Positions 4,362 through 60,168 of a stretch of DNA of 64,000 nucleotides are shown here, one piece after another. The notes below the pieces were generated by a model. It had not been told where the DNA came from and ran no database searches. It saw only the letters and a list, made by a program, of their open reading frames with translations. Origin of the DNA: Escherichia coli. GTDB taxonomy: Bacteria; Pseudomonadota; Gammaproteobacteria; Enterobacterales; Enterobacteriaceae. The DNA lies in assembly GCF_024298765.1 (NCBI RefSeq), contig NZ_CP101210.1. The stretch is one strand, 5' to 3'. The number at the start of each line of letters is the position of its first letter. Position 1 is the stretch's first letter. The translations under genes and the position numbers were made by a program.

Positions 4362-4400
4362 CAGTGTATTGGTAGCTAAAAAGCCAGGGGCGGTAGCGTG
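4362..4400 (+). promoter_or_regulatory. JUMPstart element with ops (GGCGGTAGCGTG, 4389-4400) in colanic acid operon leader
   Basis: cagtgtattggtagctaaaaagccaggggcggtagcgtg about 180 bp upstream of wza; ops is the RfaH recruitment site. Confidence 0.85.
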
Positions 4401-4578: not shown

Positions 4579-5718
4579 ATGATGAAATCCAAAATGAAAT
4601 TGATGCCATTATTGGTGTCAGTAACCTTGATAAGCGGTTGCACAGTACTTCCGGGCAGCAATATGTCGACGATGGGCAAAGACGTCATCAAACAGCAGGA
4701 CGCTGATTTCGATCTCGACAAAATGGTGAATGTTTATCCGCTGACCCCGCGCCTGATTGACCAATTACGCCCACGCCCGAATGTAGCGCGCCCCAATATG
4801 ACGCTGGAAAGTGAGATCGCGAATTACCAGTATCGCGTCGGGCCGGGCGACGTTCTGAATGTCACCGTCTGGGATCACCCGGAACTCACCACGCCAGCCG
4901 GTCAGTACCGCAGCTCCAGCGACACCGGCAACTGGGTACAGCCTGACGGCACTATGTTTTACCCGTATATCGGCAAGGTCCACGTAGTCGGGAAAACGCT
5001 CGCTGAAATCCGCAGTGATATTACCGGGCGCTTAGCGACGTACATCGCTGACCCGCAGGTGGATGTTAATATCGCCGCCTTCCGCTCGCAAAAGGCCTAT
5101 ATCTCAGGTCAGGTGAATAAATCCGGTCAACAGGCGATCACCAACGTACCACTGACCATTCTCGACGCCATCAACGCCGCAGGTGGCCTGACCGACACCG
5201 CTGACTGGCGCAACGTGGTGCTAACACACAATGGTCGTGAAGAACGCATTTCTTTGCAGGCGCTGATGCAAAACGGCGACCTCAATCAGAACCGACTGCT
5301 TTACCCCGGCGATATTCTCTACGTGCCGCGTAATGATGATCTGAAAGTGTTTGTGATGGGTGAAGTGAAGAAACAGAGCACCCTGAAAATGGACTTTAGC
5401 GGCATGACCCTGACTGAAGCCCTGGGCAATGCCGAAGGTATCGACATGACCACCTCCAACGCCAGCGGCATCTTTGTCATTCGTCCGCTGAAAGGCGAGG
5501 GCGGGCGTAACGGCAAGATTGCCAATATCTACCAGCTGGATATGTCCGATGCCACGTCGCTGGTGATGGCGACAGAATTCCGCCTGCAACCTTATGACGT
5601 GGTGTATGTCACCACCGCCCCGGTTTCCCGCTGGAACCGTCTGATCAATCAGTTGCTGCCAACTATTAGCGGTGTCCGTTACATGACGGATACAGCCAGC
5701 GACATTCATAACTGGTAA
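4579..5718 (+). CDS. wza: Outer membrane polysaccharide export lipoprotein
   Basis: 379 aa, lipoprotein signal (LISGC); first gene of colanic acid cluster. Confidence 0.95.
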
Positions 5719-13508: not shown

Positions 13509-14630
13509 ATGTCAAAAGTCGCTCTCATCACCGGTGTAACCGGACAAGACGGTTCTTACCTGGCAGAGTTTCTGCTGGAAAAAGGTTACGAGGTGCATGG
13601 TATTAAGCGTCGTGCATCGTCATTCAACACCGAGCGCGTGGATCACATTTATCAGGATCCGCACACCTGCAACCCGAAATTCCATCTGCATTATGGCGAC
13701 CTGAGTGATACCTCCAACCTGACACGCATTTTGCGTGAAGTGCAGCCGGATGAAGTTTACAACCTGGGCGCAATGAGCCACGTTGCGGTTTCTTTTGAGT
13801 CACCGGAATATACCGCAGACGTCGATGCGATGGGTACGCTGCGCCTGCTCGAGGCGATCCGCTTCCTCGGTCTGGAAAAGAAAACCCGTTTCTATCAGGC
13901 TTCCACCTCTGAACTGTATGGTCTGGTGCAGGAAATTCCGCAGAAAGAAACCACGCCGTTCTACCCACGCTCTCCGTATGCTGTCGCCAAACTGTACGCC
14001 TACTGGATCACCGTTAACTACCGCGAATCCTACGGCATGTACGCCTGTAACGGTATTCTCTTCAACCATGAATCCCCGCGCCGCGGCGAAACCTTCGTTA
14101 CCCGCAAAATCACCCGCGCAATCGCCAATATCGCCCAGGGGCTGGAGTCGTGCCTGTACCTCGGCAATATGGATTCCCTGCGTGACTGGGGCCACGCCAA
14201 AGACTACGTAAAAATGCAGTGGATGATGCTGCAACAGGAACAGCCGGAAGATTTCGTTATCGCGACCGGCGTTCAGTACTCCGTGCGTCAGTTCGTGGAA
14301 ATGGCAGCGGCACAGCTGGGCATCAAACTGCGCTTTGAAGGCACGGGTGTTGAAGAGAAGGGCATTGTGGTTTCCGTCACCGGGCATGACGCGCCGGGCG
14401 TTAAACCGGGTGATGTGATTATCGCCGTTGATCCGCGTTACTTCCGTCCGGCTGAAGTTGAAACGCTGCTCGGCGACCCGACCAAAGCGCACGAAAAACT
14501 GGGCTGGAAACCGGAAATCACCCTCAGAGAGATGGTGTCTGAAATGGTGGCTAATGACCTCGAAGCGGCGAAAAAACACTCTCTGCTGAAATCTCACGGC
14601 TACGACGTGGCGATCGCGCTGGAGTCATAA
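13509..14630 (+). CDS. gmd: GDP-mannose 4,6-dehydratase (colanic acid copy)
   Basis: 373 aa; Rossmann [10 protein letters not shown]; SDR active-site region. Confidence 0.95.
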
Positions 14631-18845: not shown

Positions 18846-18931
18846 AATGCGAAACCGAGATGTAAATAACGACAAAAACAAAATTGGCCGTTTCGGTCAG
18901 GGCCAACTATTGCCTGAAAAAGGGTAACGAC

Positions 18932-23329: not shown

Positions 23330-23535
23330 CGACAACGGTTGCCGGATGCGGCGTAAAACGCCTTATCCATCCTACGGTTCCGTGCTCGGGACCTGTAGGC
23401 CTGATAAGACGCGTCAGCGTCGCATCAGGCACTGAATGCCGGATGCGGCGTGAACGCCTTATCCGGCCTACGGTTCTGTGCTCGGGTCTTGTAGGCCTGA
23501 TAAGACGCGTCAGCGTCGCATCAGGCAAAAAGCGG
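23330..23535. repeat. BIME: about four REP palindromic units in alternating orientation, with an internal ~96-bp tandem duplication
   Basis: Alternating GCCGGATGCGGCGT(A/G)AACGCCTTATCC and GGCCTGATAAGACGCGTCAGCGTCGCATCAGGC units; the long track ORF 23314-24867 reads through them artefactually. Confidence 0.8.
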
Positions 23536-30011: not shown

Positions 30012-30050
30012 CAGTGAGTTGGTAACTGTTAAGCCAAGGGCGGTAGCGTG
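30012..30050 (+). promoter_or_regulatory. JUMPstart element with ops (GGCGGTAGCGTG, 30039-30050) in O-antigen operon leader
   Basis: cagtgagttggtaactgttaagccaagggcggtagcgtg; same 39-bp architecture as the wza leader copy. Confidence 0.85.
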
Positions 30051-30085: not shown

Positions 30086-30841
30086 CTAAGCGAGGTTCTG
30101 GTTTTCAAATTGTTCCGGACTGAGGCCGCCACACCAACTGTGCCGCCGCCACCGATTGTAATCACATTCGATATAATTAAACACCGTTGCCCGCATTATT
30201 TCCCGGCTGATAAAGTGTTCTCCATGGATACATTCCACTTTCAGCGAATGAAAGAAGCTTTCCACGCAGGCATTATCGTAGCAGCAACCTTTTGCGCTCA
30301 TACTTCCACGCAGATTATGCCGCTTCAGTTGCGCCGTCATGCGTGGCGACATTGACCAGCCAATAACGGCACGTGACCACAGGTCAATGACCACTGCCAG
30401 ATACAGCCAGCCTTCATCTGTACGTAAGTACGTGATGTCTCCTGCCCACTTCTGGTTCGGGCCACTGGCGTAAAAATCCTGCTCCAACAGATTTTCTGAC
30501 ACAGGCAGGCCGTGTGCGCGGTAGCTGACCGGGCTGAACTTCCGGGAGGCCTTTGCCCTCAGTCCCTGACGGCGCAGGCTTGCCGCCACGGTTTTTACGT
30601 TAAAGGGGTAACCCTGAGCACGCAGTTCATCCGTCAGGCGTGGGGCACCGTAACGCTGTTTTGACCGGGTAAAAGCCGCGAGGACAACGCTGTCGCAGTG
30701 TTGGCGGAACTGCTGACGCGTGCTTATCCTTGTCCGCCGCTGACACCACGTATACCAGCCGCTGCGGGCCACCCGGAGCACGCGGCACATTGCTTTGATG
30801 CTGAACTCAGCCTGATGTTTTTCAATAAAGACATACTTCAT
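30086..30841 (-). pseudogene. insF: IS3 OrfB transposase catalytic domain, apparently truncated by in-frame internal deletion (251 aa versus recalled 288 aa)
   Basis: [19 protein letters not shown]...; junction PRMTAQL|KRHNLRG at about 30326/30327; recalled intact OrfB has about 37 extra residues here including HTDRGGQY. Confidence 0.7.
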
Positions 30842-33318: not shown

Positions 33319-34440
33319 ATGGCTAAAGTCGCTCTCATTACTGGCATAACCGGACAAGACGGTTCTTACCTGGCAGAGTTTCTGCTGGAAAAAGGTTACG
33401 AGGTGCATGGTATTAAGCGTCGTGCATCGTCATTCAACACCGAGCGCGTGGATCACATTTATCAGGATCCGCACACCTGCAACCCGAAATTCCATCTGCA
33501 TTATGGCGACCTGAGTGATACCTCCAACCTGACGCGCATTTTGTGTGAAGTGCAGCCGGATGAAGTGTACAACCTTGGCGCAATGAGTCACGTTGCGGTC
33601 TCTTTTGAGTCACCGGAATATACCGCAGACGTTGATGCGATGGGTACGCTGCGCCTGCTCGAGGCGATCCGCTTCCTCGGTCTGGAAAAGAAAACCCGTT
33701 TCTATCAGGCTTCCACTTCTGAACTGTACGGTCTGGTGCAGGAGATTCCGCAGAAAGAGACCACGCCGTTCTACCCACGCTCTCCGTATGCAGTCGCCAA
33801 ACTGTACGCCTACTGGATCACCGTTAACTACCGCGAATCCTACGGCATGTACGCCTGTAACGGTATTCTCTTTAACCATGAATCCCCGCGCCGCGGCGAA
33901 ACCTTCGTTACCCGCAAAATCACCCGCGCAATCGCCAACATCGCACAGGGGCTGGAGTCGTGCCTGTACCTCGGCAATATGGATTCCCTGCGTGACTGGG
34001 GCCACGCCAAAGACTACGTAAAAATGCAGTGGATGATGCTGCAACAGGAACAGCCGGAAGATTTCGTCATCGCTACCGGCGTTCAGTATTCCGTGCGTCA
34101 GTTCGTGGAAATGGCGGCAGAGCGAGTCGGAATCAAACTGCGTTTTGAAGGCGCAGGTGTAGATGAGAAAGGGATAGTGGTTTCTGTTAATGGTGAGGAT
34201 GCTCCAGCAGTTAAACCTGGAGATGTAATCGTTAAGGTTGACCCGCGTTACTTCCGTCCGGCTGAAGTTGAAACACTGCTCGGCGACCCGACCAAAGCGC
34301 ACGAAAAACTGGGCTGGAAACCGGAAATCACCCTCAGAGAGATGGTGTCTGAAATGGTGGCTAATGACCTCGAAGCGGCGAAAAAACACTCTCTGCTGAA
34401 ATCTCACGGCTACGACGTGGCGATCGCGCTGGAGTCATAA
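33319..34440 (+). CDS. gmd: GDP-mannose 4,6-dehydratase (O-antigen copy)
   Basis: 373 aa; near-identical to colanic acid gmd apart from a divergent patch at about 34110-34255. Confidence 0.95.
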
Positions 34441-56139: not shown

Positions 56140-57039
56140 TCACTCCATCATCTTCTCAATCGGCAGGACCAGGATTGAACTGGCACCCAGCGCTTTCAGT
56201 TTTTCCATCGTTTCCCAGAACAGGGTTTCGCTACTGACCATGTGCATCGCTACACGCTGTTGGTCACCCGCCAGCGGCAGAATGGTTGGGCGTTCGGCAC
56301 CTGGCAGCAGGGCGATGACTTCATCCAGACGTTCGGTCGGTGCGTGCATCATGATGTATTTTGATTCGCGCGCCTGGATCACACCCTGAATACGGGTCAG
56401 CAGTTTGTCGATCAGTTGCTGTTTGGATTCTTCCATTTCGCCATCGCGCTGGATCAGGCAGGCTTTCGAGCGGTAGATAACTTCGACTTCGCGCAGGCCG
56501 TTTGCTTCCAGCGTGGCACCGGTGGAAACCAGATCGCAAATCGCATCCGCCAGTCCGGCACGCGGGGCGACTTCAACAGAACCGTTCAGTAAGCAGGATT
56601 TAAAAGAGATGCCTTTCTGGTCGAGATAACGCTTGAGCAGGTGAGGATAAGAGGTGGCGATACGTTTACCGTTTAAGGAGAGCGGGCCATCCCAGGCTTC
56701 ATCAACCGGCGTTGCCAGCGAAAGACGGCAGCCGCCGAAATCCAGACGACGCAGGGTAAAGTAGCGTGGATCTTCACCCTGGGCGCGGCGGTTAAGCAGC
56801 TCTTCTTCCAGCACGTTTTCGCCGATAATCCCGAGGTCAACCACGCCGTCCATTACCAGACCGGGAATGTCGTCGTCACGCACGCGCAGAATATCAATCG
56901 GCATGTTTTCTGCCATCGCGATCAGGCGCTGGGTGTGAAGATTGATTTTAATGCCACAGCGCGCCAGCAATTCACGTGAGTCATCACTTAAACGGCCGGA
57001 TTTCTGCATAGCTATGCGTAAACGAGTGTTGTCTGTCAT
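56140..57039 (-). CDS. hisG: ATP phosphoribosyltransferase
   Basis: Start taken at [15 protein letters not shown] (299 aa) within the 312-aa track ORF. Confidence 0.95.
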
Positions 57040-57084
57040 TTTCTTATTCCTCTTTAAACCTGTCTGAACCGTTATCAACCGCGC

Positions 57085-57120
57085 AATAAAAAAGCCCCCG
57101 GAAGGTGATCTTCCGGGGGC
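57085..57120 (-). terminator. his attenuator terminator hairpin
   Basis: GCCCCCGGAAG...CTTCCGGGGGC stem followed on the minus strand by a T-run; lies between hisL and hisG. Confidence 0.85.
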
Positions 57121-57184
57121 TTTCTCATGCGTTCATGTACCACTGGAAGATCTGAATGTCTTCCAGCACACATCGCCTGAAAGA

Positions 57185-57235
57185 CTAGTCAGGATGATGG
57201 TGATGATGGTGGTGTTTAAATTGAACGCGTGTCAT
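57185..57235 (-). CDS. hisL: his operon leader peptide (7 consecutive His codons)
   Basis: Minus-strand ORF ATG ACA CGC GTT CAA TTT AAA CAC CAC CAT CAT CAC CAT CAT CCT GAC TAG = MTRVQFKHHHHHHHPD. Confidence 0.95.
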   Translation of the reverse strand: MTRVQFKHHHHHHHPD

Positions 57236-57484
57236 AAAAGTCTCTGTGAATTTTTATTCAACTGATGTCTTTTAACCTAAACCACTTTCACGTTAGAAAG
57301 CAAGGGCTTTTTTATATATTTTATGGCAATGGATTTGTTTAATGAATGAGCGGGGAAAGGAGGGGGCTAAGAGGACTGTCCTCTAAGCTGACGGCACCAA
57401 AAATAGCGAAGCCTGGATTTTCGTCTCACTGACAATACCTTGATCTACAAACTAATTAATAAATAGTTAATTAACGCCCATCAT

Positions 57485-57502
57485 TGTACAATGAACTGTA
57501 CA
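57485..57502 (+). promoter_or_regulatory. yefM-yoeB operator: two TGTACA core motifs with 12-bp centre spacing
   Basis: cattgTACAatgaacTGTACAaaag immediately upstream of the yefM RBS; matches the recalled YefM/YoeB autoregulatory site architecture. Confidence 0.7.
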
Positions 57503-57517
57503 AAAGAGGAGATTGAC

Positions 57518-57769
57518 ATGCGTACAATTAGCTACAGCGAAGCGCGTCAGAATTTGTCGGCAACAATGATGAAAGCCGTTGAAGATCATGCCCCGATCCT
57601 TATTACTCGTCAGAATGGAGAGGCTTGTGTTCTGATGTCACTCGAAGAATACAACTCGCTGGAAGAGACGGCTTATCTACTGCGCTCCCCCGCTAACGCC
57701 CGGAGATTGATGGACTCAATCGATAGCCTGAAATCAGGCAAAGGAACAGAAAAGGACATTATTGAGTGA
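57518..57769 (+). CDS. yefM: Antitoxin YefM (Phd/YefM family)
   Basis: 83 aa from [13 protein letters not shown]; the track ORF begins 27 bp upstream. Confidence 0.95.
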
Positions 57770-58020
57770 AACTAATCTGGTCTGAGGAATCATGGGATGA
57801 TTATCTGTACTGGCAGGAAACAGATAAGCGAATTGTTAAAAAGATCAATGAACTTATCAAAGATACCCGCAGAACGCCATTTGAATGTAAGGGGAAGCCA
57901 GAACCCCTGAAACATAATTTGTCAGGTTTCTGGTCCCGACGCATTACAGAGGAGCACCGTCTGGTATACGCGGTTACCGACGATTCACTGCTCATTGCAG
58001 CATGTCGTTATCATTATTGA
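57766..58020 (+). CDS. yoeB: Toxin YoeB (ribosome-dependent mRNA interferase, RelE/ParE superfamily)
   Basis: 84 aa; 4-bp overlap with yefM. Confidence 0.95.
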
Positions 58021-59902: not shown

Positions 59903-59987
59903 AGAAAAATTATTATGACAAGCCTCTCATTCTCTTGTCATTTCCCCCCCATTTAGGCACAATGCGCCGCTGTCAAAAAATGACTAA

Positions 59988-60020
59988 AAACCGACGTTTC
60001 ATCAGCGTCGGTTATTTTTT
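59988..60020 (+). terminator. Rho-independent terminator after yeeY
   Basis: AACCGACG...CGTCGGTT hairpin followed by ATTTTTT. Confidence 0.7.
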
Positions 60021-60168
60021 GCTTCAAACCAATCATTCATACCAAGAGGCCGGGCTTCGTACCGGATAGATATTTACTAAAAATCGACAGTTGTTGTCGC
60101 TGAGGAATCCAAAAAAATGGGGCAATTTTTTGCTTACGCGACGGTTATCACCGTAAAGGAGAATGACC

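Follow-up and report, generated by a model that had tools for sequence, protein, structure and literature searches.

A leader with all elements of the classical his attenuator, and a rare natural substitution at position +129, in the his region of Escherichia coli

The trpL, thrL, leuL, pheL and ilvL leaders have in common a short ORF rich in codons for the cognate amino acid, hairpins that are mutually exclusive, a pause that couples transcription with translation and an intrinsic terminator ahead of the first structural gene (PMC9291695, PMC1183508). The his leader shows all of these properties, yet its regulatory codons are others and its sequence is unrelated to theirs. It has six segments (A to F) whereas trp has four, and it works without a repressor. 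For leaders identical or nearly identical to the one described here, read-through has been published to rise when charged tRNA(His) is limiting (PMC4046918), and the readout reported for the Salmonella system spans about 30-fold (PMC4046918).

The his leader studied here lies on the minus strand of a 64-kb stretch of Escherichia coli DNA, referred to below as the window. It is almost certainly the E. coli hisL leader/attenuator operating by classical ribosome-mediated transcription attenuation, an element that is already known from textbooks and in which there is nothing new. When compared with hisL of E. coli K-12 and Salmonella enterica (RF00514), the leader peptide (MTRVQFKHHHHHHHPD), the A-F segments, the pause hairpin, the pause site and the terminator were the same, and so were the distance to hisG and the neighbours, yefM-yoeB upstream and hisGDCBHAFI downstream. 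The Rfam His_leader model RF00514 matched positions 57086 to 57209 on the minus strand over its entire length (model positions 1-126 of 126) with 131.7 bits, the gathering score being 49 (E = 1.3e-22), and the match was repeated when the whole window was scanned at gathering level. The Thr_leader model, in contrast, reached only 23.6 bits against its threshold of 55 and covered the terminator alone. Other weak matches to the terminator alone (NsiR1, two miRNA families and a plus-strand His_leader of 31.9 bits) were below threshold as well and were discarded together with Thr_leader; such matches appear because the terminator hairpin is palindromic. No T-box or other histidine-responsive RNA was matched in Rfam at E <= 1 between 54000 and 60000, nor at gathering level in the whole window.

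Of 5426 complete E. coli genomes, 5423 gave a match to a 471-nt query spanning the locus (57500-57030). In at least 12 of them the identity is 100%, and there RefSeq labels the region as hisL, 'His leader region' and hisG. The alignment with K-12 MG1655 showed 465 of 471 identical nucleotides and six substitutions, at 57478, 57392, 57385, 57252, 57138 and 57043, none of them inside the A-F helix arms. Gene order is also shared. In E. coli MRY15-131 the upstream neighbours are plaP, yoeI, yeeY, yeeZ, yoeB and yefM, with hisL-hisG-hisD-hisC-hisB following, and the ORFs upstream of the leader in the window, from yefM/yoeB out to 59902, fit yefM, yoeB, yeeZ and yeeY in size and order. On the downstream side, an ORF at 56140-57039 (minus strand), annotated in the identical sequence as the ATP phosphoribosyltransferase gene hisG, is the first structural gene under the attenuator; it is followed on the same strand by hisD, hisC and the remaining genes of the hisGDCBHAFI operon.

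The vicinity of the leader shows some further particularities. The yefM-yoeB pair, divergent from hisL, is intact except that the YoeB toxin (57766-58020, plus strand) has Cys instead of the Gly41 of K-12, with 83 of 84 residues identical. Between yefM and hisL, at about 57375-57395, K-12 has a perfect 10-bp palindrome, CTAAGAGGAC-A-GTCCTCTTAG, in which the T at 57385 of the window introduces one mismatch; no annotation of this palindrome was found in the genome records viewed. A TGTACA motif adjoins the yefM start (57475-57500) and may resemble the YefM-YoeB operator palindromes; a second copy would lie just beyond 57500. Farther away, an ORF of 251 aa at 30086-30841 (minus strand) contains integrase-core (rve, rve_2, rve_3) and HTH_21 domains and is probably, judging from these domains, a transposase-like fragment of IS3 type; it is found directly after a JUMPstart element (30012-30050) and before the first gene of the O-antigen cluster. 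Two 373-aa ORFs of equal length, at 13509-14630 and 33319-34440 (both plus strand), are each followed by a 321-aa ORF, and by position these pairs look like candidate duplicate gmd/fcl-type GDP-sugar genes of the colanic-acid and O-antigen clusters. Four other Rfam matches were above their gathering scores: naRNA4 (23398-23468, minus strand, 79.7 bits), algC RNA (18878-18927, plus strand, 78.2 bits), the sRNA STnc240 downstream of the yeeY-like ORF (59948-60022, plus strand, 68.2 bits) and a second JUMPstart (4362-4400, plus strand, 57.3 bits) in front of the ORFs beginning at 4579.

A leader ORF had been proposed at 57185-57235 of the minus strand, and when read off the sequence it runs from 57235 to 57185, which makes the original prediction exact to the base. 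The ORF (ATG ACA CGC GTT CAA TTT AAA CAC CAC CAT CAT CAC CAT CAT CCT GAC TAG) consists of 16 codons for MTRVQFKHHHHHHHPD followed by UAG, and the identical sequence is annotated in RefSeq as hisL (WP_001364200.1). It is missing from the ORF list only because the minimum length for listing was 20 aa. The seven consecutive His codons that had been claimed (CAC CAC CAT CAT CAC CAT CAT) occupy 57214 to 57194, and a pattern of seven CAY codons occurs once in the 64-kb window, at hisL, as compared with 0.00 times in 100 dinucleotide-preserving shuffles. The GC hairpin and U-run expected within 57085-57120 were found as GCCCCCGGAAG-ATCAC-CTTCCGGGGGC at 57120-57094 followed by TTTTTTATT at 57093-57085. 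Between the end of the U-run and the ATG of hisG (57039), which is on the same strand, there are 45 nt, in accordance with the location upstream of hisG given for the hairpin and U-run. The classification as textbook his attenuation is also supported, since all the classical elements are present in the right order and both the Rfam match and the RefSeq annotation of the identical sequence agree with it. The regulatory unit is larger than the span first outlined and extends from a transcription start near 57266 to 57085.

Concerning the promoter, its position suggests a putative -35 hexamer TTGCTT (57298-57303, minus strand), identical to the K-12 sequence and 18 nt upstream of the -10. The putative -10 hexamer TAGGTT (57274-57279, minus strand) matches three of six consensus positions, is followed by an A-rich spacer (AAAAGAC) and stands 7 nt upstream of the deduced +1, an A at 57266. 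This start was deduced by fitting the numbering of PMC10989985: it is the sole one that gives U49, G127, U128 and G129 in K-12 plus the reverse DnaA-box-like sequence GGTTGATAA at 187-195 (PMC10989985), and it also places the pause at U102. A consensus promoter/terminator scan of the region 56900-57600 reported neither the his promoter nor the attenuator terminator. We rejected this silence as proof of absence. The promoter is absent from the scan because its hexamers are weak, the -10 with three of six positions lying below the scan threshold, and the terminator was most likely missed through a greedy A-U/G-U extension of the stem, which pairs the U-run with the upstream A-tract.

The six segments were delimited by folding of the minus-strand RNA. 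Segment A, which comprises the His5-His7, Pro and Asp codons (57188-57202) and corresponds to Rfam helix 1, is the partner of segment B (57167-57185), and B can alternatively pair with segment C (CUGGAAGAC, 57158-57166). The other partner of C is segment D (GAUCUUCCAG, 57143-57152), which forms the antiterminator when it pairs with E instead. Segment E (GAGAAAGCCCCCGGAAG) supplies the 5' arm of the terminator; the segment itself lies at 57123-57110, and with the whole stem, which reaches 57126, it spans 57110-57126. It is followed by the terminator loop AUCAC (57105-57109), whose AUC also pairs with D when the antiterminator forms. The 3' arm (CUUCCGGGGGC, Rfam helix 3) is segment F at 57104-57091, and together with the U-run UUUUUUAUU it occupies 57085-57104. 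A GGAAGA/UCUUCC motif is repeated through segments B to F and therefore each segment is able to pair with either neighbour. In local folds, A:B, B:C, C:D and D:E gave hairpins of -11.8, -12.1, -12.7 and -16.7 kcal/mol, respectively, and one G is common to A:B and C:D. The terminator E:F, whose stem extends to 57126 with the flanking A/U pairs, reached -30.8 kcal/mol. The whole leader folded at -67.5 kcal/mol as compared with -39.1 +/- 4.1 for its shuffled versions (z = -6.93), and none of 200 shuffles was as stable.

These values also bear on whether a His-codon ORF and a hairpin are adjacent here by chance, or whether the hairpin is the terminator of an upstream gene, without coupled regulation in either case. 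The single point in favour of such a reading, which we regard as vanishingly improbable, is the silence of the generic promoter/terminator scan. Against chance stand the 0.00 expected occurrences of seven CAY codons, the fold z-score of -6.93, the full-length Rfam match of 131.7 bits and the same layout upstream of hisG at 67 loci of other Enterobacteriaceae species among the matches listed. As for an upstream terminator, yefM is transcribed divergently and therefore no upstream gene on the hisL strand needs one.

The hisL pause has been defined by a G-10 Y-1 G+1 consensus, a hairpin with a 5-bp stem and an 8-nt loop, and a distance of 10 nt (PMC9291695). In the window, the his pause hairpin CCUGA-CUAGUCUU-UCAGG (57176-57193, minus strand) has a 5-bp stem and an 8-nt loop, forms the inner part of A:B and is invariant in the 60 leaders aligned below. 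A 10-nt spacer and GCU|G, at the pause site, come next, and the pause signal (57164-57174, minus strand) reads G-10 at 57174, U-1 at 57165, which is U102, and G+1 at 57164. Each element of the published definition is found, which points to an intact hairpin-stabilised RNA polymerase pause site.

RNA folding for alternative pairings, the check suggested along with the original prediction, produced the expected switch between terminator and antiterminator. In equilibrium folds of the full-length leader the terminator persisted whichever ribosome mask was applied, as expected for a kinetic decision. The switch was examined by thermodynamic modelling only, on a nascent transcript that ends at the terminator loop, before F, and by sequential folds; it is visible solely in these truncated transcripts and relies on a kinetic argument. 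Without a ribosome, the nascent transcript was predicted to form A:B and C:D, and the GGAAG core within E was largely unpaired (P(paired) 0.26). With the A site of the ribosome on any codon from His1 to His6, the predicted fold was B:C plus D:E, and the same core was paired with a probability of 0.96-1.00. From His7 onward the ribosome footprint entered B and the B:C pairing was lost, which fits the published observation that derepression is strongest when the ribosome stalls at His5 (PMC4046918). When the ribosome was placed on the stop codon, C:D formed in sequential folding once D emerged, the direct path from C:D to D:E had a barrier of 12.6 kcal/mol, and the terminator dominated (-40 to -47 kcal/mol) as soon as F was made. 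At equilibrium, the truncated transcript with the ribosome at the stop slightly preferred D:E (-18.4 kcal/mol) over C:D, and therefore termination in this state would depend on the folding order and on the much stronger E:F helix. Passage from the antiterminator state to the terminator fold met a barrier of 15.6 kcal/mol, a modelled value consistent with read-through once the antiterminator has formed. In these models, the A:B/C:D/E:F and B:C/D:E pairings are mutually exclusive and the position of the ribosome sets the choice between them.

The sequence of events can be proposed as follows. Transcription would begin near 57266, and with the small pause hairpin formed RNA polymerase would pause at U102 (57165), giving a ribosome time to begin the translation of hisL. 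With plentiful His-tRNA(His), the ribosome would pass the seven His codons and reach UAG, covering A and B; C:D would then pair as D emerges, E would be left free for F, and the E:F hairpin with its U-run would end transcription 45 nt short of hisG. Under a shortage of charged tRNA(His), the ribosome would stall on the His codons and cover A only, so that B:C and D:E would form, the terminator would be blocked and the polymerase would enter hisGDCBHAFI. In the absence of any translation, A:B, C:D and E:F would form and lead to termination. How the leader responds to tRNA charging, and in which kinetic order these steps follow, we infer from published genetics of Salmonella and E. coli.

Leaders of other species gave comparative evidence. 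When one genome of each species was searched for seven CAY codons followed by CCN-GAY, at least 120 places were found. Among the matches listed, hisG was present within 700 nt at 67 of 120 places, and all the named ones belong to genera of the Enterobacteriaceae; the other 53, for example in Frankia, Roseomonas and archaeal MAGs, had no hisG within that distance and were discarded. We aligned 59 distinct Enterobacteriaceae leaders, each followed by hisG, together with the window, 60 sequences in all. Mean identity was 0.973 in the 97 columns that belong to any helix arm (73 invariant), 0.918 in the 30 other columns from His1 to the U-run (16 invariant) and 0.623 in the 48 columns from the U-run to hisG (one invariant). 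Using a structure derived from one of the aligned sequences, the pairs of the terminator state were standard in 99.4% and those of the antiterminator state in 97.8% across the 60 leaders, as compared with 37-57% when the 3' partners were slid by one to three columns. The B:C pairs were kept in 100% of the cells. Segment C has one variable base, A in 42 sequences and G in 18, that faces U in both B and D and is therefore compatible with both conformations. No pair was changed on both sides among the 60 leaders and every shuffle gave the observed value; since the helix arms are invariant, this covariation test is powerless and speaks neither for nor against the structure. Two variations on the leader ORF were also seen in this family: in an enterobacterial his leader (L121:1160-1345, minus strand) the uninterrupted run of His codons counts ten, not seven (MSVQFKHHHHHHHHHHPD), and in several leaders of Enterobacter type a start at an ATG farther upstream in the same frame would yield a peptide of 25 aa (MNKHSSRIYMTRVQFK...).

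The peptides encoded at the 67 hisG-linked loci among the matches listed end in VQFKHHHHHHHPD, with two exceptions, one with VQCK and one with ten His. A near-invariant sequence from VQFK to PD in those 67 species could be taken to mean that HisL is a functional small peptide itself and that the RNA structure is secondary. We find this hardly credible, as the same nucleotides are constrained by A:B and by two outer helices described below, and the conservation of the peptide is explained by that constraint. Furthermore, the N-terminal residues vary freely (MT/MS/MI/MN/MC/MK, some with N-terminal extensions), and the readout depends on the speed of translation and not on the peptide (PMC4046918).

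Among the six differences from K-12, only the one at 57138 (minus strand) affects a predicted pair. This is a rare natural SNP at leader position +129, A in the window and G in K-12 according to the alignment. Counted with a 55-mer centred on 57138, so that the position falls inside every 28-nt seed, A was found in 72 and G in 5346 of the 5426 complete E. coli genomes. The affected pair, C53:G129 of the ribosome-free fold, is broken in the window only among the 60 enterobacterial leaders. It is part of an outer helix in which the His1-His2 codons CACCAC (57214-57209, leader positions +53-58) are joined to GUGGUG (57143-57138, +124-129). A second outer helix joins GCGUUCA (57228-57222, +39-45) with UGAACGC (57135-57129, +132-138), also on the minus strand, and in the minimum-energy fold obtained with no ribosome A:B and C:D lie inside both helices. 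Neither helix is in the Rfam consensus structure; both are 98.6% paired across the 60 leaders, with wobble changes only. They may match the tRNA-like fold that has been described for the his leader. Isogenic folds of the full leader gave -67.5 kcal/mol with A and -70.4 kcal/mol with G, a predicted cost of 2.9 kcal/mol. In the nascent transcript, A129 reduced the margin of terminator-permissive over D:E-permitting folds from 4.2 to 1.2 kcal/mol, whereas the stalled-ribosome antiterminator was the same with A129 and G129 (-28.8 kcal/mol).

Position 129 is also part of a different proposal for this RNA, in which the leader acts as a riboswitch that depends on DnaA, either in addition to classical attenuation or as its main role (Yao et al. 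2023, PMC10989985). In that model, rDnaA boxes 1/2 at +46-56, 3 at +126-134 and 4 at +187-195 are located on the RNA, and bound DnaA blocks the ribosome and prevents D:E, which makes attenuation DnaA-dependent (PMC10989985). The RNA, the AB/CD/EF and BC/DE helices and the box positions are the same as those considered here; the difference is the proposed extra protein layer. Its authors reported a 4-fold derepression in dnaA A345S cells and an enrichment of the leader RNA in RIP that was lower in box 1/2 and box 3 mutants (PMC10989985). In the window, boxes 1/2 (ATTTAAACACC) and 4 (GGTTGATAA) are found at the positions of the model and are identical to K-12. Yet the same authors saw no DnaA-RNA binding in vitro and concede that direct binding is without conclusive proof (PMC10989985), and each box has two mismatches and overlaps sequence that is constrained by coding and by RNA helices. 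Box 3 reads GGTACATGA in the window and GGTGCATGA in K-12, so that the window naturally carries the artificial G129A change of that study, an allele that persists in 72 complete genomes. The engineered G129A lowered DnaA-RIP enrichment about 3-fold, with similar reporter expression in wild-type cells (PMC10989985). We consider the DnaA riboswitch unlikely, and in any case it adds a contested layer to this RNA rather than giving it another identity.

Within the hisL attenuator, the A129 SNP is most likely neutral natural variation. There is a slim chance that it moves the basal set point of his attenuation in the absence of a ribosome, either through the weakened outer helix predicted by folding or through a weakened proposed DnaA box 3.

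The hisL leader serves here as a positive control only: it is among the best-characterised bacterial regulatory RNAs, and its mechanism was recovered computationally. The failure of the generic scan to report a very strong attenuator terminator indicates that a negative from such a promoter/terminator scan is weak evidence. The hisL region anchors the window as the his/O-antigen/colanic-acid region of E. coli. If the effect on the set point were true, A129 would represent natural variation in the regulation by a textbook attenuator. As an allele already present in nature it would also be a cheap means of testing the disputed DnaA-riboswitch model.
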